A stretch of 64,000 bases of DNA, taken from positions 1,355,875-1,419,874 of the forward strand of contig CP175567.1 in assembly GCA_046097085.1 (NCBI GenBank), in the 5' to 3' direction. Below the pieces are notes generated by a model. The model was not told where the DNA came from, made no database searches, and was given only the letters and a program-made list of their open reading frames with translations. This DNA comes from Haloferacaceae archaeon 50. GTDB taxonomy: Archaea; Halobacteriota; Halobacteria; Halobacteriales; Haloferacaceae. How positions within the stretch are numbered: the stretch's first letter is position 1; every line of letters starts with the position of its first letter. Made by a program: the position numbers and the translations under genes. This document shows positions 9,681 through 39,661 of this stretch, piece after piece.

Positions 9681-9717
9681 GTCGCCCTACCTTCGGATTA
9701 TGTAGCGATAGAGTTCT

Positions 9718-11772
9718 ATGAGCAACGACATGGACAAAGACGAAAACCTCCCGGAAACGGGGGCAGGCGACGGGGCCACGTCGGGGGGACGCGACCACTC
9801 CAACTCCCCCGCCGACAGGTCGGAGGGGTCGATCGACGACCTCGGTAGCGACGTCGAAGTCGAAGCCGACGTCGCGGACGATATCGACGAGGACGACCTC
9901 CTCGGCGGGCTACAGATAGACAGCACCGCCGACATCGAGGTCCCCGACCGACTCGTCGACCAAGTCATCGGGCAGGACCACGCCCGCGACGTGGTGATGA
10001 AGGCCGCCAAACAGCGGCGCCACGTCATGATGATCGGGTCGCCGGGCACGGGTAAGTCGATGCTCGCGAAAGCGATGGCAGAACTCCTCCCCAAGGAGGA
10101 TCTGCAGGACGTTCTGGTCTACCACAACCCGGACGACGGCAACAACCCCAAGGTCCGGACTGTCCCGGCCGGGAAAGGCGAACAGATCGTCGAGGCCCAC
10201 AAGGAGGAAGCCCGCAAGCGCAACCAGATGCGGTCGTTCCTCATGTGGATAATCATCGCCATCGTCCTCGGCTACTCGCTCATCATCGCTCAGCAGGTGC
10301 TCTTGGGTATCCTCGCGGCGGGTATCATCTACCTCGCGTTCCGCTACGGGTCGCGCTCCAGCGACTCGATGATCCCCAACCTCATCGTGAACCACGCGGA
10401 CGACGCCACCGCGCCCTTCGAGGACGCGACCGGCGCGCACGCGGGTGCACTGCTTGGCGACGTGCGCCACGACCCGTTCCAGTCGGGCGGCATGGAGACG
10501 CCCAGCCACGACCGGGTCGAACCCGGGGCCATCCACAAGGCCAACAAGGGCGTACTGTTCATCGACGAGATAAACACGCTCGACATCCGGTCCCAGCAGC
10601 ACCTCATGACCGCGATTCAGGAGGGCGAGTTCGGCATCACGGGCCAGTCCGAGCGCTCCTCGGGCGCGATGGTCCAGACCGAACCCGTGCCGACGGACTT
10701 CGTGATGGTCGCGGCCGGCAACCTCGACGCGATGGAGAACATGCACCCCGCGCTCCGCTCCCGCATCAAGGGGTACGGGTACGAGGTGTACATGGACGAC
10801 ACCATCGAGGACACGCCGGAGATGCGCCGGAAGTACGCTCGGTTCGTCGCACAGGAGGTGGCCAAGGACGGCCGCCTGCCGCACTTCACCGAGGAGGCGA
10901 TGGAGGAGGTCATCCTCGAAGCCCGCCGCCGCGCGGGTCGGAAGGGTCACCTCACGCTCGAACTCCGGAACCTCGGCGGTCTGGTGCGCGTCTCCGGCGA
11001 CATCGCGCGCTCCGAGGACGCCGAGGCCACCACCCGCGAGCACGTGCTGCAGGCCAAGGGCCGCTCGCGCTCCATCGAGCAGCAGCTCGCCGACGACTAC
11101 ATCGAGCGCCGCAAGGACTACGAGCTCCAGATAAACGAGGGCTACCAGGTCGGCCGCGTCAACGGGCTGGCCGTCATGGGCGAGGACTCGGGCATCGTGA
11201 TGCCCGTCATGGCCGAAGTGGCCCCCTCGCAGGGTCCCGGCGAGGTCATCGCCACCGGGAAGCTCCAGGACATCGCCGAGGAGGCGGTCCAGAACGTTTC
11301 GGCCATCATCAAGAAGTTCAGCGGGGAGGACATCAACCAGAAGGACATCCACATCCAGTTCGTCCAGTCCTACGAGGGCGTGCAGGGAGACTCCGCCTCG
11401 GTCACCGTGGCCACGGCGGTCATCTCCGCGCTGGAGAACGTCGGCGTCGACCAGAGCCTCGCCATGACCGGGTCGCTCTCGGTCCGCGGCGACGTGCTGC
11501 CGGTCGGCGGCGTGACCCACAAGATAGAGGCCGCGGCAAAGACGGGGATGGACCGGGTCATCATCCCGAAGGCCAACATGCAGGACGTGATGATAGAGGA
11601 CGAGTACAAGGACATGATAGAGATAATCCCGGTGGAGCACATCAGCGAGGTGCTCGACATCGCGCTCGAAGGCGAACCCGAGAAGGACTCGCTGGTCGAC
11701 CGCCTCAAGAGCATCACCGGGTCCGCACTCGACAAGCAGGGCGTCGGGCCGTCGAGTCCCAGCCCGCAGTAA
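9718..11772 (+). CDS. lon: archaeal membrane-bound ATP-dependent Lon protease (LonB)
   Basis: 684 aa; Walker A GSPGTGKS, transmembrane insertion ([17 protein letters not shown]...), C-terminal Lon proteolytic domain with catalytic Ser region ([17 protein letters not shown]). Confidence 0.95.
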
Positions 11773-20506: not shown

Positions 20507-20653
20507 TAAGGCCACCAAACATATCCCTGTCAACCCCCACGTTCCGACAATGCCTTTCGGTGTGAGTGCGCGCTCTGCGAGCGGAGCGTGTCACCGGCTG
20601 AGGCGCACAGCCGTGGTGCGGCGACCGACGACCGTTCGACTCGACGCTCACAG

Positions 20654-23600: not shown

Positions 23601-23995
23601 AGGGCGGCGAGATGGTAGTGGTCGAGACGACCAACCGCGGGTCGGTGCTGGTGCGCGCGCGGGTCACCAACCGCCCCGCGCCCAAGGAGACGTTCCTCCC
23701 GTTCCACTGGGGCGGCATCTTCGAGGGCGAGAGCCTCGAAGAGCGCTACCCCGAGGGGCACGTCCCGTTCGCCATCGGCGACAGCGTCAACGCCATCACG
23801 GTCCGCGGCTACGACGCCCAGACCGCGATGCAGGAGACGAAGGTCAGCCTCGTGCGCATCCGCAAGGCGACCCAGAAGATACTCGACGAGCGGAACATGG
23901 AGACCGACCTCGACAACTTCACCACCCCGCAGGAGGAGGAGGACATCGGCCTCCAGAAGGAGTACGACGTGCGGAACAACCGGTCGATACAGTGA
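20654..23995 (+). CDS. Tat-exported molybdopterin oxidoreductase, formate dehydrogenase alpha-subunit-like
   Basis: Preferred start ATG 20654 gives MSSQQEPVSLDLDRRSFMKASALAGSLVLAGSGAGHA (twin-arginine signal); KTVCNYCAVGCGF Fe-S Cys cluster, MoCo-binding domains, 1113 aa; contains a Gly/Gln/Asn-rich low-complexity insert (QRQKGGNTTRANKAGRGPTKNSQNRSEQGGQGAQGGRTGGEIGDLQIQNLQQQG). Confidence 0.9.
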   Translation: MSSQQEPVSLDLDRRSFMKASALAGSLVLAGSGAGHALSEDATGGGPDSEGAEGRDVEGKQVKTVCNYCAVGCGFKGERKGDAFVGQEPWHENPINNGSLCSKGAGIYATEHSPKRMKHPMKKVNGEWQKVSWDEAFKTIGDEMKRLREEYGPDSVFWAGSAHHVNETAYALRKLVSLYGTNNTDNQARICHSTTVTGLANTFGYGAMTNTINDYRNYDLLLIVGQNPAESHPIAMQHILEGQARGGTIVNVDPRYTKTSAHADKFQRMRPGSDTAFMMGLLHYLNQQNELDRDMIQSRVQGWPDLQAKLGEYDLETVSELTWVDAESIREIGDLIIENKPKIQIEWAMGGTQHNNGTQNVRSYAMTALGTQGIGAQGAGLQVMRGHANIQGSTDVGPNPHILPAYYTVSSPGSWQWWTTVWSKSPFTSGEISFDELYQRFEKMPKDLYQRQKGGNTTRANKAGRGPTKNSQNRSEQGGQGAQGGRTGGEIGDLQIQNLQQQGLDPRSLMFQKGFPVSRWYEGALPKEERLHDTPIYQPHQLKMAVFQGHSVNSLTEMNKVKRAMEQLDLLVIADMFPSVASVLPDRDDGVLFLPVASPYEHWGSATNSHRSIQWRDPVRPPSHNTKTDMEIVQRIAAELGYEDHFDWGNGPELFSGESTYADALREINLGAKTIGYCQAPERLKKQKEHDGQFSTETLRAESTDPEDPVHDEYWGLPWPCWGEGHPGTPIIWNDHKDPREGGHDFRARWGTKAPTPQEWQNLPLDEDYPLEQTIQQQGRSGLSLMRESYSPDWQTSFGGQVRGVPQYPKFTTTLPENLENSDALTLPYRYALDPTKSPYDTAKALAQRGRDVDPQLYRQFDHAQPDPPTGRGKARAVAWNFLDMTPVHREPIESPKIEWVKEWPANGYQRNVLRLDQNNRKEQAQSTMLAHKQNVDTVMTTGRQVEHQGGGGETRNNVYLADLQPHMYAEIHPEKAEQLGVEGGEMVVVETTNRGSVLVRARVTNRPAPKETFLPFHWGGIFEGESLEERYPEGHVPFAIGDSVNAITVRGYDAQTAMQETKVSLVRIRKATQKILDERNMETDLDNFTTPQEEEDIGLQKEYDVRNNRSIQ

Positions 23996-28243: not shown

Positions 28244-30103
28244 TCAGTCGTCGGTCGCCACGTCGGCGTCGTGCGCCGTCGCCTCCTCGACGCCCTCGGT
28301 GCCCTCCTCGACGGCGGTAGTGAGCGACACGTTGAGGCCGAGCATCGAGGCGACGCCGCCGGCGACGGTCACGAGGTTCTTGACGGCGTGGTCGAGGATG
28401 GCGGCCCCGATGGCCACCTCCGAGGAGAGGGGCGTGAGGCCGAGCACCAACAGCGTGAACGCCCCCTCGTAGAGGCCGACGCCGCCGGGCGACAGCGGCA
28501 GCACCTTGGCGAGGTTGCCGACGCTGACGGCGAAGAAGCCGACGGCCAGCAGCGTGACCGGCGAGAGGCTGATGTCGAACGCCGCGAGCACCAGCACCGC
28601 GGTCACCACGTCGAGCGACCAGATTATCACGCTCGTCGCGCCGATGCGAAGGAAGCCGGCGCGCGACCCGGCGACTCGCTGGATGTCGCCCACGAACCGT
28701 TCGATGACGCCGGCGACGTAGTCGGCGTAGGAGTCGGTGCTCACCTTTCGGACGCCCGCGCGCACGAAGTTGCGCTCGGACCGAGCGCTGGCGGCGATGG
28801 CGGCGACCGCGCCGATGGCGGCGAGCCCGACGCCCACCGCCACGGTGACGGCGACACGCCCCGCGCCCTCGGCGCCGGTCACGGTCCGCGCGAGTTCGGC
28901 CGTCTCGCCCGCCGCGGTGAACCCGAGCAGGGCGATACCCGCGAGGAACGTGATGGTGAGCAGGTCGAACACGCGTTCGACCGCGAGCGACGCGAACCCC
29001 GAGGGGTACGGGATGCCGCGGCGGGCCTTCACCACGTACGCCCGGACGGCGTCGCCGAGACGCGCCGGGAACACGAGGTTGCCCGTCTGCGAGATGAACA
29101 CCGCCCCGGTCAGGAATCCGACCCGTTCGTGGAACCCGAGGGCGTCGAGGATGTCCTGATACCGGAGGCCGCGGACCGGCCACGAGGCGAGGTAGATTAC
29201 GGCCGCCACCGCCACCAGCGCCGGGTCGACCTCGCTCATCCGCGCGAAGACGCGCGAGAAGTCGATGTACTGCGTCATCAGCACCACCGCGAGTACGGTG
29301 AGCAGGATGCCCGCCGACATGGTGACGCGGCGGGTGATTCGCGGCTGTACCGACAGCTCCCACCACGTGCGGAGTATCTGGCTCCCCATGCCGAACACGT
29401 CGCGCACGAGGTCGACCTTCGAGTCGCCCTTCGGCTCCCAGTCGACCGGGAACTCGGCCACCCGGAGGCCGGAGCGCTGACCCCGGACCAGCATCTCGGT
29501 GTCCCAGAACCAGTGTTCGTCGCCCACCTCGTTACGGAGGGTCTCGAACGCCTCGCGGTCGAACGCCTTGAAGCCGCACTGGTGGTCGTTGAGCTTCGAC
29601 CGGAGGAACAGACGGACCATGGCGTTGTACGCCTGACTCGGCACGCCCCGCTTGACGGGGCGGTCGGCCTCCCGGCCGGGCATCCACCGCGACCCGGTGG
29701 CGATGTCGTACTCCTCTGACCGTACCTTCTCCACGAGTTCTTCGAGGTGGCCCATGTCCGTGGCGAGGTCCGTGTCGAAGTAGACCAGCGTCTCGCCGTG
29801 AGCCGCCTCGAACGCCCGAGTCAGCGCTCCGCCCCGCCCCAGTCGCTCGTCGCTGTGGAAGTGTCGCACGCGCGGGTCTTCGGCCGCCATTCGGTCGGCT
29901 ATCTCCGGCGTCCGGTCGTCGCAGCCGTCCTCGGCGACGATAACCTCGTACGATCCCGGCGGAAGAAACGAACCCAGCGTGTCGAGGGTGGTCTCCACCG
30001 TCCCCTCGATGGTTTTCTCTTCGTTGTACGCCGGGAGAACGACGCTCACCTCCACCTGAGCGGGCGTCGTCTCGGCGGCGTCCGCGGTGCTCCGACTATG
30101 CAT
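28244..30103 (-). CDS. GT2 glycosyltransferase fused to multi-TM LPG-synthase-like domain (AglD-like dolichyl-phosphate hexosyltransferase candidate)
   Basis: 619 aa; N-terminal VSVVLPAYNEE...FDTDLATD (GT-A DxD) resembles dolichol-phosphate mannosyltransferase; C-terminal ~330 aa with 7-8 TM helices similar to UPF0104/flippase-like domains as in Haloferax AglD. Confidence 0.8.
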   Translation of the reverse strand: MHSRSTADAAETTPAQVEVSVVLPAYNEEKTIEGTVETTLDTLGSFLPPGSYEVIVAEDGCDDRTPEIADRMAAEDPRVRHFHSDERLGRGGALTRAFEAAHGETLVYFDTDLATDMGHLEELVEKVRSEEYDIATGSRWMPGREADRPVKRGVPSQAYNAMVRLFLRSKLNDHQCGFKAFDREAFETLRNEVGDEHWFWDTEMLVRGQRSGLRVAEFPVDWEPKGDSKVDLVRDVFGMGSQILRTWWELSVQPRITRRVTMSAGILLTVLAVVLMTQYIDFSRVFARMSEVDPALVAVAAVIYLASWPVRGLRYQDILDALGFHERVGFLTGAVFISQTGNLVFPARLGDAVRAYVVKARRGIPYPSGFASLAVERVFDLLTITFLAGIALLGFTAAGETAELARTVTGAEGAGRVAVTVAVGVGLAAIGAVAAIAASARSERNFVRAGVRKVSTDSYADYVAGVIERFVGDIQRVAGSRAGFLRIGATSVIIWSLDVVTAVLVLAAFDISLSPVTLLAVGFFAVSVGNLAKVLPLSPGGVGLYEGAFTLLVLGLTPLSSEVAIGAAILDHAVKNLVTVAGGVASMLGLNVSLTTAVEEGTEGVEEATAHDADVATDD

Positions 30104-30148
30104 TGGGTTTCAGTCCGGCACCCGCGAGTATGAACTTTCTGGGTTCGG

Positions 30149-30192
30149 CCGTGAATGTGCACGTGAGAACAGATTCCGCGTGAATGTCACCG
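30149..30192. repeat. two copies of GTGAATGT(G/C)AC motif 30 bp apart (putative operator half-site pairs GTGA-N3/4-(G)CAC)
   Basis: ccGTGAATGTGCAC at 30149-30162 and gcGTGAATGTCACc at 30179-30192 in the spacer upstream of the minus-strand GT2 gene (start 30103). Confidence 0.3.
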
Positions 30193-30378
30193 GAGACACA
30201 GCGTCCCGACGGGTGCGTTCGCGGCGACCGTCGTCGACCGTGACGTGTTAGGCGACCGTACCCACGGCGGGGGGCCGGAGCGCGCGTCGGCGGTCCCGAG
30301 GGGATAGAATCGCACGACTGCGGCGGGTTAACCTCCCGTACCAAATCTCTAAAGGCGCTTTCGGTCGTCTGTAGTGAC

Positions 30379-30639
30379 ATGAGCGCGACCACGGCGGCCG
30401 CGGAGGCGGCGGACGCGGAGACGACCGACCTGACCGAGAAACAGCGTCGCATCCTCGACTACCTGCGACAGAGCGCGGCGACCAAGACCTACTTCAAGTC
30501 CCGCCTCATCGCCGAGGAACTCGGGATGACCGCCAAGGAGGTCGGCGCGAACATGACCGCCATCCGCAAGGGCGACTTCGACGTGTGCGTCGAGAAGTGG
30601 GGCTACTCCTCGGGCACGACGTGGAAGGTCACCGCGTGA
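30379..30639 (+). CDS. small hypothetical protein (86 aa), conserved-looking haloarchaeal ORF
   Basis: ORF with good codon bias; LTEKQRRILDYLRQSAATKTYFKSRLIAEELGMTAKEVGANMTAIRKG suggests a small HTH-like domain. Confidence 0.45.
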   Translation: MSATTAAAEAADAETTDLTEKQRRILDYLRQSAATKTYFKSRLIAEELGMTAKEVGANMTAIRKGDFDVCVEKWGYSSGTTWKVTA

Positions 30640-30695
30640 AGACGTAGAAGTATGACTCACCGCGTGAAGACGGGTGCGACTGCGGGCCGACCCGC

Positions 30696-31331
30696 TCAGG
30701 GGTCGTACCGGATGAACTCGTCCGCCGCGGCCGCGAAGTCGGCGGCGTCGGCTCCGAACGAGTCGGTGTATCGCAACAGGAGCGTGATGACCGCCTCGGG
30801 CCGGACCACGGCGTAGCCGTCCTCGCGCGCGAGGAGGCCCGCCTCGTCGAGTTCGCCCGCGTAGTTGCTGACCGTCGCGCGAGACACGCCGAGGGCGTCT
30901 GCGAGGTGGCTCCCGGTCGCGTCGGGCGTCCGGAGGAGTTCGACCAGCATCCCCCGCGGGGTGTCGCGCCGGAGGTAGCCGAGCGCCACCTGTTCGAACT
31001 CGTCGAACCGGCCGGCCGGGAAAAAGCGGCGGTAGTCGCCGTCGCGCCGGGACTCTATCACGCCGTCGTCCAGCAGGCGCCTGAGGTGGTGTTGCGTCTC
31101 CCCGGTGCCGAGTTTGAGGTCGTCGCGGACCTTCGAGAAGTGCGCGCCCGGCGTGGCCGCGAGATAGCCCACGATGGCGTCGCGGGCGTCGCTCCCCGTC
31201 CCCGCCCCGGCCTCGGCGGCGTCGCCGTCGTCGCCGTTCCCGCTCCCGAGGCCGACGAGCGGCGTCGCGGTGCCGACGGCCGCGAACCGTCGGAGCGTCG
31301 CCCGTTTGTCCTCGTCGACGCGCTCGCCCAT
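30696..31331 (-). CDS. winged-helix (ArsR/TrmB-like) transcriptional regulator, two wHTH-like segments
   Basis: 211 aa; IVGYLAATPGAHFSKVRDDLKLGTGETQHHLRRLLDDGVIESRRDGDYRRFFP and LVELLRTPDATGSHLADALGVSRATVSNYAGELDEAGLL. Confidence 0.6.
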   Translation of the reverse strand: MGERVDEDKRATLRRFAAVGTATPLVGLGSGNGDDGDAAEAGAGTGSDARDAIVGYLAATPGAHFSKVRDDLKLGTGETQHHLRRLLDDGVIESRRDGDYRRFFPAGRFDEFEQVALGYLRRDTPRGMLVELLRTPDATGSHLADALGVSRATVSNYAGELDEAGLLAREDGYAVVRPEAVITLLLRYTDSFGADAADFAAAADEFIRYDP

Positions 31332-31378: not shown

Positions 31379-32623
31379 TCACTCCCGCTCGCGTTCGAGT
31401 TCGCGGTCCGACTCGTCCGCCGCCGCGTCCTCGTCGCCGCCGGTCGGGGCGTCCTCGCGGCCGTCCCCGGGCGCGCTCTCGGGCTCCGCGGCCGTCTCCG
31501 AGGCGCCCCCGGCCACGGGCTCTTCCTCGTTCGCGTCCGCGATTATCTCGTCCGCGCTCTTGAGGTCGGTGCCCGCGCCGGCCTTGATGGCCTCGGCCTC
31601 CTTCTCCAGTTCCTCCACGTCCATCTCGGCCGCCTCGTCTATCTGGCCGAGTATCTCGTCGATGTCGTCGAGGCCGATGAGTTCGCGCGTCTCCGCGTCG
31701 AACTCCAGGCTGTCGAGTCCGGCCGTCTCCTGTACGTCGCTGTCGGTCAACTGCTTGCCGTAGCGCCCCAGCAACGACGTCAGCTCCTGTGGCAACACGA
31801 ACGTGGTGGACTCGCCCTCGCCGATGCGTTCGAGCGTCTCCATCCCGCGCTCGATGACGGCGCGTTCGCCCATCGACTCGGCGGACTTCGCGCGTAGCAC
31901 CGTGGAGATGGCGTCGCCCTGCGCTTCGAGTATCTGGGACTGCTTCTCGCCCTGCGCCCGGATGATGTTCGACTGCTTCTCTCCCTCCGCCTGCTCGACG
32001 GCGCTGCGGCGTTCACCCTGCGCCTCCAGAATCATGGCGCGGCGGCGACGCTCCGCGGAGGTCTGTTGCTCCATCGCCTGCTGGACGTCCGCCGAGGGGT
32101 TGACCTCGCGCACCTCCACCGACTCGACGCGCACGCCCCACTCGTCGGTGGGTTCGTCGAGTTCCTTCCGGATGCGCGCGTTTATCTCCTGTCGCTTGTT
32201 GAGCGTGTCGTCGAGTTCCATGTCGCCCAGCACCGCACGGAGGGTGGTCTGGGCGAGGTTGGAGACGGCGCGCTTGTAGTCGTCGACTTCGAGGAACGCC
32301 TTGCGCGCGTCCATCACCTTGATGTAGACCACCGCGTCGGCGGTGACCGGCGAGTTGTCGCGAGTGATAGCCTCCTGTCGGGGCACGTCGAGCGTCTGCG
32401 TACGCATGTCGAACGGGTACGTCCGCGAGACGAACGGCGGGATGAAGTTGATACCCGGTTCGAGTAGCTTGCGGTACTCCCCGAACACCGTGAGCGCCTG
32501 CTTCTCGTAGGCGTCCACGATAGCCACCATCTGGTAGACTGTCACCACGGCGAGGACGAGGACGAGTAGACCCACTATCAGCGGTAGGCCGACCAGCCCC
32601 GTCTGGAGTGGTACGGGAACCAT
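31379..32623 (-). CDS. SPFH/Band-7 (stomatin/prohibitin-like) membrane protein with long acidic coiled-coil tail
   Basis: 414 aa; N-terminal TM then SPFH core (FGEYRKLLEPGINFIPPFV...QTLDVPRQEAITRDN...), Ala/Glu/Gln-rich repeats, acidic C-terminus. Confidence 0.9.
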   Translation of the reverse strand: MVPVPLQTGLVGLPLIVGLLVLVLAVVTVYQMVAIVDAYEKQALTVFGEYRKLLEPGINFIPPFVSRTYPFDMRTQTLDVPRQEAITRDNSPVTADAVVYIKVMDARKAFLEVDDYKRAVSNLAQTTLRAVLGDMELDDTLNKRQEINARIRKELDEPTDEWGVRVESVEVREVNPSADVQQAMEQQTSAERRRRAMILEAQGERRSAVEQAEGEKQSNIIRAQGEKQSQILEAQGDAISTVLRAKSAESMGERAVIERGMETLERIGEGESTTFVLPQELTSLLGRYGKQLTDSDVQETAGLDSLEFDAETRELIGLDDIDEILGQIDEAAEMDVEELEKEAEAIKAGAGTDLKSADEIIADANEEEPVAGGASETAAEPESAPGDGREDAPTGGDEDAAADESDRELERERE

Positions 32624-32822
32624 AACTCGGGCTTAGTGTGTGCGTGTGATAAGGGTTCGCCTCACAGTCGCGGCGGTCGTACCGCCGTGTCCGGCGGATT
32701 ACGACCGGCTACGGCCATGGTCGTCGGCCGGTGCGCCGTCGGAGTCAGACGCGCCTCCGGACGTCACAGTGCGGCCCCGCGGTCATCCCCCGCACGTCGG
32801 CGTCCGAGCCGTCACCGCTCTC

Positions 32823-34346
32823 TCAGTCCGCCATCGTATCGCTGTAACCGGGCGGCGACTGGATACGGACGAACGGCGGTTCGTCGATGTTGTCGACGAG
32901 ACGGCTCGACCCCACGTACCCCATGGGGGACTTCTCCAGTGTGAGGTACTGGAGTCCGTTGTCGTGGCGCCACAGCTCCAGCGCCTGCGACGCGTTGTTC
33001 GTGAAGAACTCCTCGATATCTTCGGGCACCGTGTCGGGGTTGTGGACGTACACCGTCGTACTGTCGTCGGTGAGCAGGTGCGTCTCCTGCCACCGGTGCA
33101 GTTCCATAATCTGATCGGCGGTGAGGTGTCTCGCCGCCGTCTCCGTGTCGATGAACGTCGAAAGTGAACGCTCTTCCCGACGGTCGTCGATGAGTTGGAG
33201 CAGGTGCTCGATTCCACCCTGTTCCTGTGCCAGCGTGTAGACGTTGTTCTGGGCGGTTTCCTGTTTGCTCGTAACGTCGATGACGAACAGCCTATCCGAG
33301 TCTAGGAGCTCCGTAACCCGGTCCGGGTTCTCCGGAAACAGCTGGTCGAGGAGTTCGGACTTCGATCCTACCTTCGGCACCATCAGCAGGACGGCGTTGC
33401 CTTCCTCCAGTTGGTACTTCAACAGCGGAAGAAACAGCGGACGGAGGTCGACGTAGCCGTCGTGTTTGAACACGACGGACTCACCCCTGATGAACCCGCC
33501 GCCCAACAGCTCGTTGAGGCCCGAGATGTGCGTGTCCATGAACGACGCCTCGGAACGTCCCATATCGACCGGGTTCCGATTGCGCGGGATAATGTACACG
33601 CCTCCATCGTTGAACTCGATCTCGTACGATCGGGTGTCGTGATTGACGCCGCGCATCTTCAGCACCTGGAGAAACCGGTGAAAGTCGCTCCGGATCTCTT
33701 CGAGCCAGAGCCGAATGACACCGTGGGCGTTGTACTGTAGCGGGTCTATGGTGCTGGCGGTCTGGTCGGCCATGTATCCTCCCTCCGAGACGAGCAGTGC
33801 GGTCGCCTCGAACTCGTCGCTGAACAGTCGAATGAGGTCGAGGATGGCCCGGCGGAACACGTCCCGGTTGTCGGTCATCGCCTGCAACCCGGAGACGCTG
33901 TCGACGACGACGCGGTCTGCCGGGGCGTACTGCCCCAGCATCTGACTGACGTACTTCCGGGAGAACGGCGCGGCGTATCCCTCTCCGACTACCTGATTTC
34001 CTTCGAGCGTCTCGACGGTGAGTTTCTCTTGGTCGTCTTCCAGCGTGTAGCCGGGACGCGCCTGAACGGACGTGATTGTCAGGTTCTCGTGGTCGAGGTC
34101 GTAGTCGTACGGGGCGAAGGTGTCCCGGAGTTCGGACGGTGTCTGTTCCGTGGAGACGAACAGACACTCGTCGCCCTCTCGTATCCCCTCCTGTAAGAAC
34201 TGCATCGAGAGCGTCGACTTCCCCGTACCCGGCCCGCCCGTAACGAGAACTGACCGGTTTCGAGGGAGTCCGCCTCCGAGAATGCGATCGAGCGTTTCGT
34301 TTCCTGTCGACACGACTTCCCGTATTGCGTCAGGCATCTCGTCCAC
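32823..34346 (-). CDS. KaiC/RecA-superfamily ATPase, tandem-domain with intact N-terminal Walker A and degenerate second domain
   Basis: 507 aa; LDRILGGGLPRNRSVLVTGGPGTGKSTLSMQF (KaiC-type Walker A), Walker B LLVSE-like; second half (NELLGGGFIRGESVVFKHDGYV...) aligns to a KaiC domain that has lost the P-loop. Gene lies in a ~58-60% GC island. Confidence 0.8.
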   Translation of the reverse strand: MDEMPDAIREVVSTGNETLDRILGGGLPRNRSVLVTGGPGTGKSTLSMQFLQEGIREGDECLFVSTEQTPSELRDTFAPYDYDLDHENLTITSVQARPGYTLEDDQEKLTVETLEGNQVVGEGYAAPFSRKYVSQMLGQYAPADRVVVDSVSGLQAMTDNRDVFRRAILDLIRLFSDEFEATALLVSEGGYMADQTASTIDPLQYNAHGVIRLWLEEIRSDFHRFLQVLKMRGVNHDTRSYEIEFNDGGVYIIPRNRNPVDMGRSEASFMDTHISGLNELLGGGFIRGESVVFKHDGYVDLRPLFLPLLKYQLEEGNAVLLMVPKVGSKSELLDQLFPENPDRVTELLDSDRLFVIDVTSKQETAQNNVYTLAQEQGGIEHLLQLIDDRREERSLSTFIDTETAARHLTADQIMELHRWQETHLLTDDSTTVYVHNPDTVPEDIEEFFTNNASQALELWRHDNGLQYLTLEKSPMGYVGSSRLVDNIDEPPFVRIQSPPGYSDTMAD

Positions 34347-34719
34347 ACATTCAGGCCTCCGTTACTTAACATTAAGCTGATTATATGCGAAATGAGAGAT
34401 AATCACGAGCGGTCGACAGTCATCTGTCCGACGCCCGAAGAGTAGTGTGAGACGGAGCGGCGGGGTTCGGTCGACTGCCACGCTATCGAGAGCGTAGGCT
34501 CCATCGGCTCCGGCGTCCCATTTCGGGTACCGCCGCGGGTCGGCAGTCGGACGTGAGAACGACGGGCCGAGGCGCGTCCGATGGCCGCCGCCGGAACTGT
34601 TCGCCGTCCGGGCGTGACGTTACCGGCCTCCGGAGAGTCGCCCGAACCGACTGGAGAGTCGCGCGGCCGTGGTGACCTCCGACGTCTTCGCCAGTTCGAG
34701 AGCGGCGGGGCGGACCGAT

Positions 34720-35775
34720 CTACTTCTGCCCCTCGCTGTCGAGGTGGAACTGGAGGACCGTCTCCATCCCGTCGAGCAGCGCCCGAATATCGACCGTCTC
34801 CAGTTCGGGGGTGCGTTCGAGTTCCTCGTGGTACTGTTGCCACTGGTCGAGGAACGTGCCCTGGACGTCGTTGCGCTTGACCCGCTCACGAGCCGAGTCC
34901 ACCACGTCCTCCGTCGGGTTCGCCCACAGTCGTCGTAGGTCCCGGTCGGTTATGATGCCCGTCTCGTAGGCGTAGGCCACCACGCCGGAGGTGAAATCCC
35001 CTTCCGCAAGTTCGCGCTGCCACGTACTCACCCAGTTCCCGATGCGCGCCATCTTCTGGGCCTTCCAGAGCGTGGTCCGGAGCGTGGCGAACTCTTCACG
35101 GTTGAATCTCGTGGAGTGCATCAGATCGACGTCCGAGAAGGCGAGCATGACCATGTTGTGGGAACTGTACGCGTACGCCTCCGTCGTGTTGGCCGAGTAC
35201 GGGTGGTTGTTTACGATGTACGCGTACCGCACCGCGTTCAGCGTCTGTTGCAGGTCGAAGCGGAACAGGTCGGCGTACTCCCTGAACCGCGGCGCAATCC
35301 GGAGTGATCGTTCGAGTTCGTCCCATACGTCGACGGCGAGGCCGAGGCAGTCTTCGTTGACGCCGCACCTGTCGAAGTTCACGGAGAGATGGTTGAACGG
35401 GATTTTGGCGGCCTCCTGGAACGTCGTCCGATCGTTCTGGTCGTCGACGAGGTCGTCGAGAAGGGTCACGTAAAACGTGAGGAGGGTCTTGTCGTTCTGC
35501 ACCTTGTCCCTGTACCTCTCGTTCACCGTCGAGAGGCGGAAATACGGACTCAGAAAGTGGAACCACTTCCAGAGGAACCGGTCACGGATGCCGACGACGT
35601 CGTCGTACTTGTCGGCGATAGCTTCGAGGTTGCCGGGGAGGTCGTACTCCTCTACTTCTCTCATTATTCGTTCAGGATGTATTATACGTTCAGGGACTAA
35701 AATAACACTCATCCGCTCTAGTTCTCGCGTGTCTCTCGCGCGGGCCTCCGTTTCGGGCGTCGTCAATCGACGCAC
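34720..35775 (-). CDS. hypothetical all-alpha protein with class I terpene-synthase-like motifs (DDLVDD and NWVSTWQRE)
   Basis: 351 aa (alternative start MSVILV at 35709); FYVTLLDDLVDDQND (DDxxD preceded by aromatic/hydrophobic helix) and ~140 aa downstream IGNWVSTWQRELAEGD (compare NDLFSYQRE NSE/DTE motif of bacterial terpene cyclases). Low-GC island gene; function inferred from motifs only. Confidence 0.55.
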   Translation of the reverse strand: MRRLTTPETEARARDTRELERMSVILVPERIIHPERIMREVEEYDLPGNLEAIADKYDDVVGIRDRFLWKWFHFLSPYFRLSTVNERYRDKVQNDKTLLTFYVTLLDDLVDDQNDRTTFQEAAKIPFNHLSVNFDRCGVNEDCLGLAVDVWDELERSLRIAPRFREYADLFRFDLQQTLNAVRYAYIVNNHPYSANTTEAYAYSSHNMVMLAFSDVDLMHSTRFNREEFATLRTTLWKAQKMARIGNWVSTWQRELAEGDFTSGVVAYAYETGIITDRDLRRLWANPTEDVVDSARERVKRNDVQGTFLDQWQQYHEELERTPELETVDIRALLDGMETVLQFHLDSEGQK

Positions 35776-35819
35776 GTCCCCCTCTCGGATGGAGTAGCGC
35801 GACGGTCAGTACGGGCCGG

Positions 35820-36431
35820 TCACTCCCGCTCTGTCTCGGGTTCGGTCCCCGTCTGCCGTCCGCTCTGCGTCTCCGAGGCCGTCCGACCCCGCGCGAGTTC
35901 GCGGTCTATCTCGTCTTCGAAACTCGACACCGCCTCGACGGTGACGACGTTGCCGCCGCCGGGGTCGACCACCATCACCTCCGTGCCCTCGGGTATCTCG
36001 CCGTCGACCGACCGCGCGGAGTAGTAGGGGTTGAAGCCGCCGGCGTCCAGTTTGATCTGGCCCGACCTCGGCGTGACGCGCTCCGTCACCCGGCCCGTCT
36101 TGCCCGTGAGCGCCGCCGAGTCGCTGGTGCGCCCCGCGCCCTTCCCGCCGTACACGTCGAGTTCGCGGTAGCCCCAGAGGGCGACGCCGCCGAACACCAA
36201 CACGAGGAGACCGAGGACAAGCGTCCCGGCCAGCGGACCCAGCGCGGGGCCGACTACCATCCCCACGAGTCCGGCGGCGAGGAGCGCCACGCCGAGGACG
36301 ATGAAGTGCGCGCCGGGCGACAGCGCTTCGGCCACCGAGAGGCCGAGACCTGCCAGTACCAGCAGGAGCGGGAGCACGCTCGGGTCCGTCGGGTCGAGTT
36401 GTAGGAGCGGACCGAGGGGCGGGCTGACCAT
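35820..36431 (-). CDS. NfeD-family membrane protein (short form, OB-fold C-terminal domain)
   Basis: 203 aa; N-terminal hydrophobic helices then GKTGRVTERVTPRSGQIKLDAGGFNPYYSARSVDGEIPEGTEVMVVDPGGGNVVTVE beta-barrel region typical of NfeD partners of stomatins. Confidence 0.8.
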   Translation of the reverse strand: MVSPPLGPLLQLDPTDPSVLPLLLVLAGLGLSVAEALSPGAHFIVLGVALLAAGLVGMVVGPALGPLAGTLVLGLLVLVFGGVALWGYRELDVYGGKGAGRTSDSAALTGKTGRVTERVTPRSGQIKLDAGGFNPYYSARSVDGEIPEGTEVMVVDPGGGNVVTVEAVSSFEDEIDRELARGRTASETQSGRQTGTEPETERE

Positions 36432-36488
36432 GTCCGGGACTAGGGACGTGGCCGGTTAATGATTTGCGTACGCCGGGACGCGACCGGG

Positions 36489-37721
36489 TCACTGTGCGAC
36501 GGTTGCGCCGACCCCCGCCGCCGGGAGCGGCGGGCGCAGGTCGACCGCCGACACCGCGGCGCGGAGGGCGTCGAGCGATGCGGACGCCGACTCGGCGGCC
36601 GACGTCTCACTCTCCAACGCGGATTCCGATTCGGACTCGGACTCGGTCCCGGAACTGGACCCGGACTCCGACGACGGGGCGTCGAACTCGACGGTCAGCG
36701 ACGGGTCGTGGACGAACCGCACGCCCGGCCCGTCGGCGGCCAGTCCGTCCCGGACCAGCACCGTGCCGGTCGTGGCGTTCGTCGGGACGGTGAACACCGC
36801 CCACACCGTGCCGGCGTCGCCGGGCGCGAACCGGTCCATCGTCTTGAGGTTCCCGCCCGAGAGGGACTGCGGGCCGTAGCGCACGCCGTCGGACTCGAAG
36901 AGGAGGGTCGGCCCCCCGAACATCGCGGCCTCGCCCGCGGTGCTGGACACGTCGAGTCTGACCAGCACGAACGTCTCGTTCGGCGGCGCCTCGAACGTGC
37001 CGCCGGGCGGGTCGAGCGTCGACCGCGTCTCCGCGCGCCACCGCACCGTCAGCGACTCGCTCGCCTCCGGCGTCGCCGTGGAGACGGCGGACACCGCGAT
37101 GTCCGGGCCGCCACCGCCGCCGGTCGGCACCCCGATGACGACGCCGCTGGTCAGCACCGCCACCGCCACGACGACGGCCAGCAGGTGCTTCGGGTTGCTC
37201 GCCGCGCGGGCGCGCAGCGCCGCCGTCGCCGCGCCGTCGGCCGCGCCTGGGAGCGCGGCGCGGAGCCTCGCCAGCCAGTCGCCGCCGTCGGCCCGGTCCT
37301 CGTCGTCCTCCGCTCCGCTCTCGTCCGCGCCCTCCGTCTCGCCGCCGTCGCGGTGGCGGCGTAGCACCGCCTCGAACCCGCCCTGCTGTACGGTCTTCTC
37401 GAGGCGGCCGCGGTCGAGGAGGTGGACGCCGCGGTCGGACGCGATGCGGCGCACCTCGTCCGTGAACGTGCCCTGTGTCGCCACGACTGCCACGTCGACG
37501 CCGCGGCTCCCGCACATCTCCGCGAACCGACGGAGGTGGGCCGTCCGCACCTCGGTGTCCGGATCGGGGAGCACCAGCATCAGCCCGCGTGTCCCGCCGC
37601 CGCGCTCACCGCCGACGAGGTACGCGTCGTCGCCGCGGCGCGTCGTGTCCGTCTGCCACCCCTGTTCGCGCCACAGGTCGGCGAGGAGGCGGGGGAACGC
37701 GGCCGTCGGGAGGGGGTCCAT
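36489..37721 (-). CDS. membrane protein with N-terminal Mrr-cat (restriction-endonuclease-fold) domain, single TM and extracytoplasmic Ser/Thr/Glu-rich domain
   Basis: 410 aa; FPRLLADLWREQGWQTDTTRRGDDAYLVGGER...LMLVLPD...AVVATQGTFTDEVRRIASDRGVHLLDRGRL fits the Mrr_cat/PD-(D/E)xK core; TM LLAVVVAVAVLTSGVVIGV; C-terminal acidic ESESESE tail. Confidence 0.6.
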   Translation of the reverse strand: MDPLPTAAFPRLLADLWREQGWQTDTTRRGDDAYLVGGERGGGTRGLMLVLPDPDTEVRTAHLRRFAEMCGSRGVDVAVVATQGTFTDEVRRIASDRGVHLLDRGRLEKTVQQGGFEAVLRRHRDGGETEGADESGAEDDEDRADGGDWLARLRAALPGAADGAATAALRARAASNPKHLLAVVVAVAVLTSGVVIGVPTGGGGGPDIAVSAVSTATPEASESLTVRWRAETRSTLDPPGGTFEAPPNETFVLVRLDVSSTAGEAAMFGGPTLLFESDGVRYGPQSLSGGNLKTMDRFAPGDAGTVWAVFTVPTNATTGTVLVRDGLAADGPGVRFVHDPSLTVEFDAPSSESGSSSGTESESESESALESETSAAESASASLDALRAAVSAVDLRPPLPAAGVGATVAQ

Positions 37722-37754
37722 CTTACCGCACCTCCCCCCGGCGCGTCGCCGGCG

Positions 37755-39521
37755 TCACGCGGACCGCCTCCTGAGCGCCAACACGCCCGCGCCCACCACC
37801 GCCACGACGGACAGCGTACGCCCGGTCAGGGGTCCCGGGAGCGGGAACGGCAGGAGTCCGCCGTCCCCGTCCCCGCCCTCGCTCGGCGTCAGCGGCGTCT
37901 CCTCGCGCACGGGGAGCGGCGTCTGCGTCGGCGCGGCCGTCGTCGTGGTGGCCGTCGCCGTCTCCGTCGCGGGAGTCCCCCTCGGCGTGGGCGTCGGCGC
38001 GTCGGCGGCCGGCACGACGTTCGCCTCCGACATCACTGGCGTCTCGTTCGGCGCGTACGCTCTGTCGATACGCGAGTCGAACGTCCCGTTCTCGTTTCTG
38101 TCGGTGTAGGGCACGGCGTACATGGTCGTGTTCGTGTTCAGCGTCGGCACGAGCGGAACTCGCACGTCGCGGTGGGTCCCCGGCGACAGGTACGACGACG
38201 CGCCGCGGATGCCCACCTTCTCGTCCTGTACGACGACGAACCCGCCCGCGGAGAGGGTGACCGAATCGACGGTCACGCTCGTCCCGCGCGTGGTCTGGTC
38301 GCGGAACGTGACGTTTGCCGCCTCCTCCTGCAGGGTGACGGTCCGCTGGGTCAGGCCCCGGTAGCCGAGCACCCAGAGCGGGAACGACGTGCCCCGGGCG
38401 ACGCCGTCGAAGTCGAACGACGCCCCGAACGTGCCGTTCCCGCCGACGGAGACCTCGTGCGGTTGGAGGAACGTGTCGGGCGCCTCAGACCGCGCGCGCA
38501 CCTCGAGCGTCGTCCCCGGCGCGAGGTTGGTCCGGCCGGACACCGCGAGCGACGAGTCGTTCCACGGGTGGACGGTGAACCCCGGGTCCGCGGACAGCGA
38601 GAACGACGGCGGCACCACCTCGAAGTCGGTGCTGAACACCGTTTCGTCCTCGTTCACGAGTTCGTTGTGCGCCTCCCGGAGCGTCATCGTGACCTCGTAC
38701 TCCCGCGGGTTCTCGTCGGGCGGGAGCGTGCTCGTGTTCCAGAGGAGGAGCACCTCGTCGCCGCCCTCGCCCGCGTTCCCGTCGTCGCCGAAGTCGGTGA
38801 ACACCCTCGTGCCGTTCGCCGGCGTGGCGAGGAACGACTCCTCCACGTTCGGGCCGGTGTCGGTCCGGGTGAACCGGACCTCGATGCCCTCGGCCCCGGC
38901 GCCGCCGGTGAGGTCGGACTCGTCGAACGCCGAGGTCAGGCCGGTGGCGTCGAACCGCACGACGGCGTAGTCGCCGCGCGCGACGGTGCTCCGCGACGTC
39001 GTCGCCTCCGCGAGGCCGCCGAACGCCGCCTCGGCCGGGTCGAGTTCGCCCGGCGCGACGCCCGACGTCGCCCCGGCCGACCCTCGTTCCTCGATGACGA
39101 AGTGGCCGAGGTCGCGTTCGACGCCGCCCACGGTCACGTTCATCAGGTACTTGGTCGCCACCAGCGGTTCGTCGAGCGAGTCGGAGTGTATCGTGGCGTC
39201 ACCCCCGGTGACGTAGGTGTCGGGGTCGGCGTTCGCCGACCGGTAGGTGTCGACCGTGACGGTGTCGGTGCCGGACCCCGGGAGCGTCACCTCCAACAGG
39301 TAGCCCGACCGCTCGCCGCCGAGGTAGAGGTGCGCCGTGTCGGAGTGGCTGACCGTGACCTCGAGGACGCCGCCCCGCGTAACCGTGAGGCTGTCGTCCC
39401 CGAACGAGGCCGACCCCTCCTCTCCTTCCGCGCCCGCGGCGACGCCGGACCCCGCCAGCGCTACTCCTACCGCGAGGAGGAGGGCTACGACCCCGCGCCA
39501 CCAGTCGTTCATTTCACTCAT
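37755..39521 (-). CDS. secreted cell-surface glycoprotein with PGF-CTERM archaeosortase sorting signal
   Basis: Start at internal Met 39521 (MSEMNDWWRGVVALLLAVGVALAGSGVAAG signal peptide); >10 N-glycosylation sequons (NVT, NGT, NTS, NDS, NTNTT, NET); Thr/Pro-rich linker (PTPTPRGTPATETATATTTTAAPTQTP) then PGPLTGRTLSVVAVVGAGVLALRRRSA (PGF-CTERM-like TM plus basic tail). Confidence 0.8.
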   Translation of the reverse strand: MSEMNDWWRGVVALLLAVGVALAGSGVAAGAEGEEGSASFGDDSLTVTRGGVLEVTVSHSDTAHLYLGGERSGYLLEVTLPGSGTDTVTVDTYRSANADPDTYVTGGDATIHSDSLDEPLVATKYLMNVTVGGVERDLGHFVIEERGSAGATSGVAPGELDPAEAAFGGLAEATTSRSTVARGDYAVVRFDATGLTSAFDESDLTGGAGAEGIEVRFTRTDTGPNVEESFLATPANGTRVFTDFGDDGNAGEGGDEVLLLWNTSTLPPDENPREYEVTMTLREAHNELVNEDETVFSTDFEVVPPSFSLSADPGFTVHPWNDSSLAVSGRTNLAPGTTLEVRARSEAPDTFLQPHEVSVGGNGTFGASFDFDGVARGTSFPLWVLGYRGLTQRTVTLQEEAANVTFRDQTTRGTSVTVDSVTLSAGGFVVVQDEKVGIRGASSYLSPGTHRDVRVPLVPTLNTNTTMYAVPYTDRNENGTFDSRIDRAYAPNETPVMSEANVVPAADAPTPTPRGTPATETATATTTTAAPTQTPLPVREETPLTPSEGGDGDGGLLPFPLPGPLTGRTLSVVAVVGAGVLALRRRSA

Positions 39522-39661
39522 GTAGCTCCGTCTGACAGTATCGTATGCGGGACAGTTCTCCGTCATACAATATAAAGAGTCGGTGAGCGTTATCACTCAG
39601 CGAAATCGGAGTTACCGGAGCGGCGGGACGGGACCCGCGCGGGACGCGGACGCGGACCCGA

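Follow-up and report, generated by a model that had tools for sequence, protein, structure and literature searches.

The nfeD–stomatin operon partners PH1510/PH1511 of Pyrococcus horikoshii (PMC4208085) are the closest described counterpart of the gene pair that frames the locus considered here, and the 64-kb stretch of haloarchaeal DNA that was analyzed, referred to as the window, shows both families with that order and orientation. In the window, however, the pair is parted by 3.2 kb holding two unrelated genes, one for a terpene-synthase-like (TPS) protein and one for a KaiC-like ATPase, and in haloarchaeal relatives the pair lies ~114 bp apart, with the SPFH/stomatin gene preceded by its own promoter-like box. 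Archaeal KaiC-like ATPases have been proposed as signal-transduction hubs (Makarova, Galperin, and Koonin 2017, as cited in PMC5847659). For terpene synthases, experimental confirmation in archaea began with A0A0E3NXY0, A0A537EJD0, and A0A5E4I9B1; the accessible part of a preprint describes these three and also predicts many such enzymes in Halobacteriota (bioRxiv 10.1101/2024.01.29.577750). Taken as a whole, the locus is best explained by a single old insertion followed by vertical inheritance, with the TPS protein acting as an enzyme regulated by the KaiC-like ATPase, a combined reading that we moderately favor. The features are as follows, in the direction of transcription.

36489–39596, minus strand: native upstream synteny block (the next two genes)
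37755–39596, minus strand: DUF7827/DUF7282 gene (Pfam)
36489–37721, minus strand: Mrr_cat-domain gene (Pfam)
35820–36431, minus strand: nfeD, native upstream-side gene; 203 aa, GC 0.712, GC3 0.88
35665–35819, minus strand: nfeD-to-TPS spacer; 155 bp, GC 0.574, with an AT-rich promoter-like segment
34720–35664, minus strand: TPS gene (class I), first cassette gene; 314 aa
34347–34719, minus strand: TPS-to-KaiC spacer; 373 bp, GC 0.643
32823–34346, minus strand: KaiC-like ATPase gene (PF06745), second cassette gene; 507 aa
32624–32822, minus strand: KaiC-to-SPFH spacer; 199 bp, GC 0.698, with the native SPFH promoter-like box
31379–32623, minus strand: SPFH/stomatin-family gene, native downstream-side gene; 414 aa, GC3 0.89
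28244–31331, minus strand: native downstream synteny block (the next two genes)
30696–31331, minus strand: HVO_0163-type HTH regulator gene (Pfam)
28244–30103, minus strand: GT2 plus LPG_synthase_TM gene (Pfam)

A re-check of the open reading frames and profile searches bore out the coordinates, strands, and gene identities of the preliminary description. The plus-strand ORFs at 36459–37364 and 37422–39575 are shadow ORFs, the real genes being the minus-strand Mrr_cat and DUF7282 genes. The SPFH protein matches Band_7 (Pfam, E 6e-43), and its orthologues in 80 haloarchaeal genomes are 75–93% identical over the best aligned segment. NfeD scores 26.3 bits against PF01957, under the 29.1-bit cut-off; in 48 other genomes, the gene immediately upstream of SPFH has a product 60–76% identical to it. 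For the TPS protein, the start is probably the ATG at 35664 within the ORF 34720–35775, as close homologues are all 312–317 aa long and align with this methionine first.

The comparison sample consisted of 80 haloarchaeal genomes, retrieved by means of the SPFH protein. In 48 of them nfeD is found by tblastn directly upstream of SPFH and co-oriented with it, the median spacer being ~114 bp over the 44 loci measurable by the gene caller; none of the 80 has either cassette gene closer than 10 kb to SPFH. The order of the Mrr_cat and DUF7282 genes upstream of nfeD is shared by Halobellus, Haloferax, Halogeometricum, Halopelagius, and Salinigranum loci, almost all of the 80 loci have an HTH gene after SPFH, and most Haloferacaceae loci then have a GT gene; the DUF7282–Mrr–nfeD–SPFH–HTH–GT block is kept across Halobellus, Haloferax, Halogeometricum, and related genera. 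The initial proposal that a cassette had been put between normally adjacent genes is thus supported by synteny and by a deficit in third-position GC (GC3), and acquisition of the module by insertion is very likely. The same proposal had called nfeD and SPFH a tight operon, of which the adjacency stands and the tightness does not: given the spacer length and the promoter-like box of SPFH, the two genes are adjacent in haloarchaea yet not closely coupled. A two-gene module of ~2.9–3.2 kb would have entered their intergenic spacer once, and would be transcribed in tandem, the TPS-like gene first and the KaiC-like ATPase gene second.

In 1-kb bins the region from 33 to 36 kb has a GC content of 0.60–0.63, the minimum of the window, which averages 0.700. 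In the window, 53 genes of 100 aa or more were called (mean GC 0.708, sd 0.037); of these, the two cassette genes have the lowest values, 0.598 and, for the KaiC-like gene, 0.606, ~2.8–3.0 sd under the mean; their GC3 of 0.80–0.81 (0.80 in the KaiC-like gene) lies 0.09–0.10 under the mean of 0.901 (sd 0.049). The lower GC first noticed for these genes is a real dip, of which ~2.7 GC points are intrinsic to the TPS family through amino-acid composition; the GC3 deficit is not intrinsic and exceeds the family bias. A foreign, lower-GC origin of the module is probable; no donor of the TPS–KaiC module was identified. Alternatively, the pair could be native and relocated within the lineage, its low GC being due to the make-up of the family or to weak expression and not to a donor of lower GC. 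Consistent with this, the TPS family averages 2.7 GC points under its neighbors and is lower in 88% of loci, the GC3 deficit has persisted across four lineages with no amelioration, no signatures of mobility were found, and both families are common among haloarchaea. Elsewhere, however, the GC3 of the TPS family equals that of its neighbors (difference 0.002 ± 0.039 over 49 loci), so that the deficit of −0.09 in the window is more than 2 sd away; relatives at 68% identity (L086, L087) have a native GC3 of 0.91, and the KaiC-like gene shows an equal deficit. On this evidence a native origin is unlikely.

The order nfeD–TPS–KaiC–SPFH is common to three related contigs (L169, L085, and L168). Uniform GC in relatives with this order, which the preliminary description had named as counter-evidence, was not seen; all three share the dip. 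The synonymous divergence of the cassette (dS 0.20–0.53) tracks that of the flanks (0.21–0.52) pair by pair, and its dN/dS is 0.19–0.34, like that of nfeD, with the KaiC-like gene at 0.24–0.34. The insertion is old and vertically inherited and not a recent strain-specific island; that it was one event is likely, and we hold this with good confidence. It would have occurred in the ancestor of the window haloarchaeon and at least three relatives, after which the module would have been passed on vertically under purifying selection. The low GC3 is kept to dS ~0.5 in the four lineages, which slow amelioration fits less well than a maintained bias.

The spacers are consistent with an insertion that left the native SPFH signals in place. 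In the KaiC-to-SPFH spacer, a BRE/TATA-like box, GCGAACCCTTATCA..., at 32632–32660, is kept in front of the SPFH gene in Halobellus and loci related to it, as well as in L085, which suggests that SPFH has at least one independent promoter, and the 46–47 nt adjoining SPFH align with Halobellus inordinatus (L007). The insertion would have spared this box, and each incoming gene would have carried its own AT-rich upstream region. The nfeD-to-TPS spacer contains a direct repeat, CCTGAACG(T/A)ATAAT, at 35663–35676 and 35681–35694, the proximal copy of which ends in the first two bases of the TPS start codon; the spacer is partly kept in L169 (75% over 146 nt), and its AT-rich segment is a putative promoter. 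The TPS-to-KaiC spacer is variable: its length is 59–220 bp in L172, L085, and L169, ~200 nt align with L169 at 71% while the remainder varies, and only ~36 AT-rich nt beside the KaiC start are kept in L085. The AT-richer string singled out in the preliminary description sits here, at 34362–34398, immediately upstream of the KaiC-like gene, and the AT-rich stretch beside the KaiC start includes the palindrome CTTAATGTTAAG at 34365–34376. The sole ORF in this spacer has a GC3 of 0.585, which marks it as non-coding, and Rfam gave no match over 30–38 kb, this spacer included.

The 507-aa ATPase matches PF06745 (KaiC) over residues 12–255 (E 2e-46; 158.5 bits against a cut-off of 26.6), and its profile matches in the PDB are to KaiC (E 8e-52). 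A single Walker A motif, GGPGTGKS, is found at residue 37 and none in the second domain, which opens with a GLNELLGGG motif and lacks a P-loop; homologues carry PF23442 (DUF7125) as well. Foldseek aligned 510–528 columns to two-domain KaiC (E 7e-28). The architecture predicted from sequence and structure model thus has an active KaiC/RecA domain first and a degenerate KaiC-like one (DUF7125) second. Like cyanobacterial circadian KaiC, the protein has the two-domain fold over its full length. Identity with a KaiC of the KaiABC oscillator was rejected, as only one Walker A motif is present, the scores against the circadian equivalog models are far under their cut-offs (NCBIfam PRK09302, 105 versus 408 bits; TIGR02655, 69.6 versus 546), and no KaiA or KaiB is found among the annotated neighbors of the gene.

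Seven loci were examined in which the TPS shares 66% identity or more with that of the window, and in each of them a KaiC gene adjoins the TPS gene. They occur in three different genomic settings, with two orientations of the pair: the nfeD/SPFH site; a tandem pair with another upstream neighbor (L172); and a convergent pair beside genes for a methyltransferase and a T2SSE ATPase (L086/L087). More distant pairs are found in L109/L128 and, with a P450 gene in between, in L105. In an unbiased set of distant family loci, KaiC–DUF7125 is near TPS in 3 of 80, versus 0 of 80 controls (Fisher p = 0.25), so the linkage is clade-specific, and linkage across the whole TPS family was rejected. A KaiC-like protein 63% identical to that of the window (L170/L171) has no TPS alongside. 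Both families are widespread in haloarchaea. A functional partnership between the ATPase and the enzyme has about an even chance, and the substrate, the product, and any contact between the two proteins are all putative. In the searchable literature, nothing specific was found on a KaiC–terpene link or on haloarchaeal terpene synthases, and the TPS–KaiC gene pairing is not described there.

Flotillin microdomains of Bacillus subtilis have been linked to an isoprenoid-fold enzyme, YisP. This precedent favors the idea that the placement in the window is itself functional, with the terpenoid enzyme working with NfeD/SPFH scaffolds, for example through an isoprenoid lipid that organizes or is organized by SPFH microdomains, and with selection holding the cassette in place. 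The four genes are co-oriented, their arrangement is kept in four lineages to dS ~0.5, and on one unrelated contig (L146) a TPS homologue lies together with P450 and SPFH genes within 5 kb. Retention of the site is, however, predicted by vertical inheritance in any case, and one TPS–SPFH proximity in ~85 loci is about the chance expectation. Moreover, neither the module nor a lone TPS gene adjoins nfeD or SPFH in any other context found (L172, L086/L087, L109, L105, and 80 further loci), and a TPS gene lies within 10 kb of the pair in 0 of 80 nfeD–SPFH genomes. A functional role for the placement is thus doubtful, and the site that the module occupies, between the two scaffold genes, is most likely incidental.

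The KaiC-like and terpene-synthase-like identities first proposed for the cargo hold up and are strengthened by structure prediction. The ORF 34720–35775 matches Terpene_syn_C_2 (PF19086) weakly (E 2.7e-4; 21.2 bits, under the 23.7-bit cut-off), and many homologues have a precomputed PF19086 match. The predicted structure shows the all-α class I terpenoid synthase fold. The first metal-binding motif, DDxx(D/E), is present as LLDDLVDDQND, and D70, D71, and D78 do not vary among 26 homologues; the second, the NSE/DTE motif (N/D)xxx(S/T)xxxE, is present as RIGNWVSTWQRE, and N210, T214, and E218 are invariant in the homologue alignment. An NSE/DTE motif in second position sets cyclases apart from prenyl diphosphate synthases, which have a second DDxxD. 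Inspection of the alignment did not reveal the C-terminal RY pair of bacterial terpene synthases; R196, R207, H307, and K314 are invariant or nearly so and, judging from the alignment, could replace the diphosphate sensor and RY pair. Isoprenoid diphosphates are abundant in archaea, and the enzyme would turn such a substrate into a terpenoid.

Could the TPS-like protein instead lack enzymatic activity and serve KaiC, Bat, or REC signaling as a helical domain that binds a ligand or regulates? Its neighbors are regulators: a PAS-GAF-BAT-HTH_10 regulator, present at 43 loci, is the commonest neighbor of the family, genes for HalOD1 and DUF7344 are also found beside it, and some fusions join it to REC-HalX or the DUF7344 winged-helix domain (REC-HalX-TPS and DUF7344-TPS). 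The Pfam score is also sub-threshold, and tailoring enzymes are absent from the window. Against this, the two Mg2+-binding motifs and a number of Arg/Lys residues do not vary even in homologues as distant as 39% identity, which fits catalysis rather than a mere scaffold, and P450 or methyltransferase genes are close by in some loci. REC domains fused to true enzymes are, in addition, known in archaea (PMC5847659). A non-enzymatic role is improbable, and the TPS-like protein is predicted, with fair confidence, to be catalytically competent. A P450 gene lies within ~1–5 kb of TPS in only four TPS loci and in one control locus. A SAM-methyltransferase was rejected as a conserved partner, the two methyltransferases found being unrelated and each confined to a single sub-lineage; pairing of a terpene synthase with such an enzyme is the logic of 2-methylisoborneol-type systems.

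Neither of the remaining explanations fares well. An ancestral four-gene order with loss of the cassette from every other lineage, favored by nothing beyond the arrangement shared by the four closest lineages, is highly improbable, as it needs many independent precise losses in at least 15 genera that keep nfeD and SPFH ~114 bp apart and leaves the GC3 deficit unexplained. KaiC-like P-loop ATPases are present in some defense systems, and a gene with an Mrr_cat restriction-endonuclease domain lies upstream of nfeD, both of which would suit the cargo of a mobile element or an antiviral defense system; the chance of this is very small, since the Mrr gene is part of the conserved native block, PADLOC gave only weak P-loop-level matches for the KaiC-like protein (best mad8, E 6.6e-6 over 49 residues) and nothing for the TPS, NfeD, SPFH, Mrr, or DUF7282 proteins, and no integrase, tRNA, or flanking repeat was found. 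No relatives of the TPS family turned up in 50,697 phage records or in IMG/VR viral contigs. The short direct repeats that the preliminary description had envisaged at the insertion boundaries did not emerge, a search for direct and inverted repeats giving only short chance-level matches; there is no tRNA gene in the 64-kb window, and neither inserted gene encodes an integrase or recombinase. No insertion mechanism is thus visible.

An old insertion that carried a predicted TPS enzyme and its putative regulator is ordinary genome evolution, a small acquired pair in a permissive intergenic spacer, although the locus shows that a compositional anomaly can outlast substantial divergence (dS ~0.5). 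The cargo is of greater interest, as archaeal terpene synthases have been demonstrated very recently and those of Halobacteriota are predicted and uncharacterized. From this locus a haloarchaeal family of class I terpene-synthase-like proteins can be defined, whose catalytic motifs are intact and whose genes are systematically set in signaling neighborhoods and, in the clade of the window, stably paired with that of a KaiC-type ATPase. This ATPase would be a regulatory partner, controlling TPS activity or expression. If functional, the pairing would provide a concrete, testable effector for the proposed KaiC-like hub signaling of archaea and an entry to regulated terpenoid production, possibly terpenoid signaling, in haloarchaea. 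In Haloferax volcanii, a network of CirA, the Bat-type regulator QarA, and REC-HalX has recently been tied to quorum-sensing-like behavior; the accessible part of that study names no signal synthase and states that the mechanism of signal secretion is unknown. It is conceivable, with a slim chance of being correct, that the family makes a small terpenoid signal whose synthesis is gated by archaeal signaling modules. Here the gating would fall to KaiC-like ATPases, and in other lineages to Bat-type PAS-GAF regulators, REC-HalX receivers, and hybrid kinases; TPS would be the enzymatic output of a network akin to that of H. volcanii.

The TPS protein of the window shares just 8–16% sequence identity with bacterial and fungal class I terpene synthases such as 10-epi-cubebol synthase (7zrn), T-muurolol synthase (9hqd), selinadiene synthase (4okm), and the N-terminal domain of geosmin synthase (5dz2). 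It differs from these also in scoring below the PF19086 cut-off, in having a C-terminal SEGxK motif in place of a recognizable RY pair, and in that the genes of its family adjoin or are fused with those of signaling proteins rather than lying in classical biosynthetic clusters. The confirmed archaeal enzymes A0A0E3NXY0, A0A537EJD0, and A0A5E4I9B1 are, by description, similar to it in being single α-domain proteins missed by standard annotation; the accessible part of the preprint states none of them to be haloarchaeal or KaiC-linked (bioRxiv 10.1101/2024.01.29.577750). The KaiC-like ATPase, in turn, resembles the archaeal hub ATPases, such as CirA of H. volcanii, in combining a KaiC/RecA domain that has an intact Walker A motif with an inactivated KaiC-like domain. 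Proteins of this kind are haloarchaeal, multi-copy, and in some loci encoded beside HalOD1 and DUF7504. CirA is shorter, its gene being given as 741 nt in the accessible part of its description, and the ATPase of the window differs from the hub ATPases in its partner, a terpene-synthase-like enzyme.

The preliminary description had placed two genes of low GC content between nfeD and the SPFH gene, and both the gene layout and the binned GC profile bear this out. In transcription order, from first to last, the region comprises the following genes.

37755-39596, minus strand: DUF7827/DUF7282 gene
36489-37721, minus strand: Mrr_cat-domain gene
35820-36431, minus strand: nfeD
34720-35664/35775, minus strand: terpene-synthase-like (TPS) gene
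32823-34346, minus strand: KaiC-like ATPase gene
31379-32623, minus strand: SPFH/Band_7 gene
30696-31331, minus strand: HVO_0163-type HTH regulator
28244-30103, minus strand: GT2 + LPG_synthase_TM gene

The location of the TPS gene is as first described, but its start is very probably the ATG at 35664 (314 aa) rather than 35775, since the same start is found in all close homologues.

The mean GC content of the window is 70.0%, and the 1-kb bins at 33-36 kb (60-63%) are its minimum. A simple gene caller guided by GC3 predicted 53 genes, of which the two cassette genes have the lowest total GC (0.598 and 0.606, compared with a gene mean of 0.708, sd 0.037), and their GC3 is 0.80-0.81, compared with a mean of 0.901 (sd 0.049). 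The AT-rich string reported earlier occupies 34362-34398 and precedes the KaiC-like gene. Across 49 TPS loci for which enough neighbours were available, the TPS gene averages 2.7 GC points under its neighbours and is lower in 88% of loci, a shortfall that is an amino-acid-composition effect. The GC3 of the same genes equals that of their neighbours (difference 0.002 ± 0.039), and the TPS genes of loci L086 and L087, which are 68% identical to that of the window, have a GC3 of 0.91. The cassette deficit of ~0.09 in GC3, common to the TPS and KaiC genes, therefore exceeds the family bias and is compatible with a lower-GC donor; no donor of the cassette was found. The GC3 deficit of the cassette (32823-35664) is kept in four lineages, the window and the metagenomic contigs L085, L168, and L169, at dS up to ~0.5, a slower amelioration than would be expected. 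Bins 9001-11000 and 21001-22000 are also under the window mean (GC 0.64-0.66); they include long genes (9718-11772 and 20588-23995) with normal GC3 (~0.92), so the low GC there probably stems from composition, not acquisition.

To compare the site in relatives, the SPFH protein was scanned against one genome per species. The scan gave 80 haloarchaeal loci, which were taken with flanks of at most 10 kb per side and searched by tblastn with the window proteins. The loci include Halobellus, Haloferax, Halorubrum, Halogranum, Haloquadratum, Halobaculum, Natronomonas, Halococcus, and Halorhabdus, among others. As visualized in these loci, nfeD lies immediately upstream of SPFH in 48 of 80, the HTH gene follows SPFH in nearly all, the GT gene comes next in most Haloferacaceae, and DUF7282-Mrr precedes nfeD in Halobellus, Haloferax, Halogeometricum, Halopelagius, and Salinigranum. 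Both cassette genes are missing from all 80 loci, the sole match being a 60-residue KaiC fragment (E 6.5e-4). Given this conserved synteny and the absence of the cassette, parsimony strongly favours gain in the lineage of the window. The adjacency claimed in the preliminary description is thus observed, with no cassette between the two genes in these loci; the pair is not "tight", as the nfeD-SPFH spacer has a median of ~114 bp (interquartile range 83-134) and SPFH has its own promoter-like box. This spacer appears tolerant of insertions, as it holds a 144-aa ORF on the opposite strand in Haloparvum alkalitolerans (L063, 2134-2565) and is an empty 557 bp in Halorientalis salina (L082, 9444-10000).

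In every locus compared, the BRE/TATA-like box precedes the SPFH ATG by ~10-38 nt. It is kept across Halobellus and related genera and reads GGCCAACGCTTATCA in Halobellus and GCGAACCCTTATCA in the window, where the segment 32632-32660 is GCGAACCCTTATCACACGCACACACTAAG. The SPFH-proximal 46-47 nt of the window still align with Halobellus inordinatus. Together, the box and this alignment indicate that the insertion left the promoter-like element of SPFH intact. The box implies that SPFH probably has a promoter of its own and a transcript whose leader, if any, is very short. The AT-rich DNA that precedes the KaiC-like gene contains a palindrome, CTTAATGTTAAG, at 34365-34376, and a direct repeat, CCTGAACG(T/A)ATAAT, is present at 35663-35694 upstream of the TPS gene; these AT-rich segments are candidate promoters or operators. 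The TPS-KaiC spacer (34347-34719) measures 373 bp, compared with 59-220 bp in relatives, and its extra DNA (64% GC) shows no coding signal, no Rfam match, and no similarity except to L169.

The order Mrr-nfeD-TPS-KaiC-SPFH is found in three metagenomic contigs, L169 (TPS 91% and KaiC 87% identical to the window), L085 (86% and 78%), and L168 (79% and 77%). Each displays the GC dip, at 0.53-0.66 compared with flanks of 0.70-0.76, rather than the uniform GC that would have spoken against acquisition. By the Nei-Gojobori method, dS of the cassette (0.20-0.53) matches that of the flanks (nfeD and the SPFH N terminus, 0.21-0.52) for the same pairs, and dN/dS is low for TPS (0.19-0.26) and KaiC (0.24-0.34), as for nfeD (0.21-0.33). 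These sequence comparisons point to one old insertion that has co-diverged with its flanks, and to purifying selection on each of the two genes. Neither notable flanking repeats nor a recombinase were found, the window contains no tRNA, Rfam gave no match, PADLOC gave no defence match, and the phage and IMG/VR collections contain no relatives. TPS family members are present on seven haloarchaeal megaplasmids.

The KaiC gene adjoins TPS in all seven examined loci with a TPS at least 66% identical to that of the window. Three genomic contexts are represented, in two orientations: the nfeD/SPFH site in four lineages; L172, a tandem pair whose AT-rich spacer is 59 bp long and whose upstream neighbour is a different gene, transcribed divergently; and L086/L087, a convergent pair with a methyltransferase and a T2SSE ATPase as flanking genes. 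Further co-resident pairs (proteins P0004/P0126, P0014/P0137, and P0015/P0136) are indicated by contigs of equal length among the TPS and KaiC homologues. In a neighbour-joining tree of KaiC-DUF7125 proteins, the TPS-linked members form a grade (the window clade, then L172, then L087/P0136/P0137), with the unlinked L170 nested within. The KaiC-DUF7125 proteins of L170 (1757-4320) and L171 (41-2517), 63% identical to that of the window, occur with DUF7504 and HalOD1 genes and no visible TPS; the same ATPase subfamily thus pairs with different partners. Among distant TPS loci, a KaiC-DUF7125 gene is nearby in 3/80, compared with 0/80 control loci (p = 0.25), and a KaiC neighbour is lacking in Halomarina (55% TPS) and Halovivax. 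In locus L109, a distant KaiC is convergent with, and 25 bp from, a 40% TPS; in L105 (7001-11643), TPS lies on the plus strand, convergent with P450 and KaiC-DUF7125 genes on the minus strand, the P450 lying between. Both KaiCs are phylogenetically distant from that of the window, and their associations with TPS are therefore independent; the one in L105 includes a tailoring enzyme. Linkage of TPS and KaiC is clade-specific, not family-wide, and the adjacency has been repeatedly rearranged.

The strongest family-wide association of TPS is with a PAS-GAF-BAT-HTH_10 (Bat-type, bacterio-opsin-activator-type) regulator, the commonest neighbour (43 loci among L088-L167), which is divergent or co-directional (e.g. 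L134, 4087-6630; L118, 3638-6091). HalOD1, DUF7344 winged-helix, and double-KaiC proteins also recur. In four REC-HalX-TPS fusions (P0064, P0112, P0116, and P0094), TPS is the C-terminal output after the receiver and HalX, and in P0104 it is joined to a DUF7344 winged helix. On the Halobellus limi megaplasmid (L173, NZ_CP031312.1, 348447-354993), HalOD1, Bat-like, TPS (42%), class I SAM methyltransferase, hypothetical, and prenyltransferase/squalene-oxidase-repeat genes follow one another in this order and could constitute a regulated gene cluster for a terpenoid, located on a secondary replicon. Judged from gene content, the recurring theme is an enzyme that would be under signal-transduction control.

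At this locus a tandem TPS→KaiC module was inserted, once and long ago, into a permissive spacer. TPS shows the class I terpene-synthase fold, and its metal-binding motifs are intact. The proposed activity of TPS is the ionisation of an isoprenoid diphosphate, giving a terpenoid; the KaiC-like ATPase would sense or relay a signal that gates TPS activity or expression, and the position between nfeD and SPFH would be incidental. A minority reading ties TPS functionally to SPFH microdomains. A second TPS/SPFH proximity is seen in metagenome contig LKMJ01000283.1 (L146, 6854-12459), in which a distant TPS (37%) lies with a REC-PAS-PAS-HisKA-HATPase hybrid kinase, a cytochrome P450, and an SPFH protein 77% identical to that of the window, with no nfeD match; however, one such TPS-P450-SPFH case in ~85 loci is near chance expectation.

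The KaiC-like protein matches Pfam KaiC over residues 12-255 (E 2e-46) and has a single Walker A motif, GGPGTGKS, at residue 37; its second half starts with a KaiC-type GLNELLGGG motif. Homologues of ~500 aa with PF06745 and DUF7125 are plentiful in haloarchaea. With the AF2 model (pLDDT 81), Foldseek gave an end-to-end alignment to two-domain KaiC (E 7e-28), and a PDB profile search gave E 8e-52. With Walker A confined to the first half of a full-length KaiC fold, the protein is a KaiC plus inactivated-KaiC protein, of the type proposed for archaeal signalling hubs (cited in PMC5847659). A circadian KaiC orthologue was ruled out by NCBIfam scores far under the cut-offs.

The first demonstration of terpene synthases in archaea is recent, and many are predicted in Halobacteriota; in the available part of that report, the three confirmed enzymes (A0A0E3NXY0, A0A537EJD0, and A0A5E4I9B1) are linked neither to haloarchaea nor to KaiC (10.1101/2024.01.29.577750). 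Haloarchaeal signalling is known to use KaiC-like hubs, Bat-type regulators, and REC-HalX receivers, as in the CirA/QarA network of Haloferax volcanii (PMC13464002); no literature linking any of these to a terpene synthase was found. The KaiC-like protein aligns with the two-domain fold of circadian KaiC, but its second domain lacks the P-loop. The components are all of known kinds: an acquired islet of small size, a signalling module of the KaiC-like type, and a terpene synthase of class I. As an insertion the locus is ordinary, and the interest lies in the TPS-KaiC pairing and the signalling context of the TPS family.
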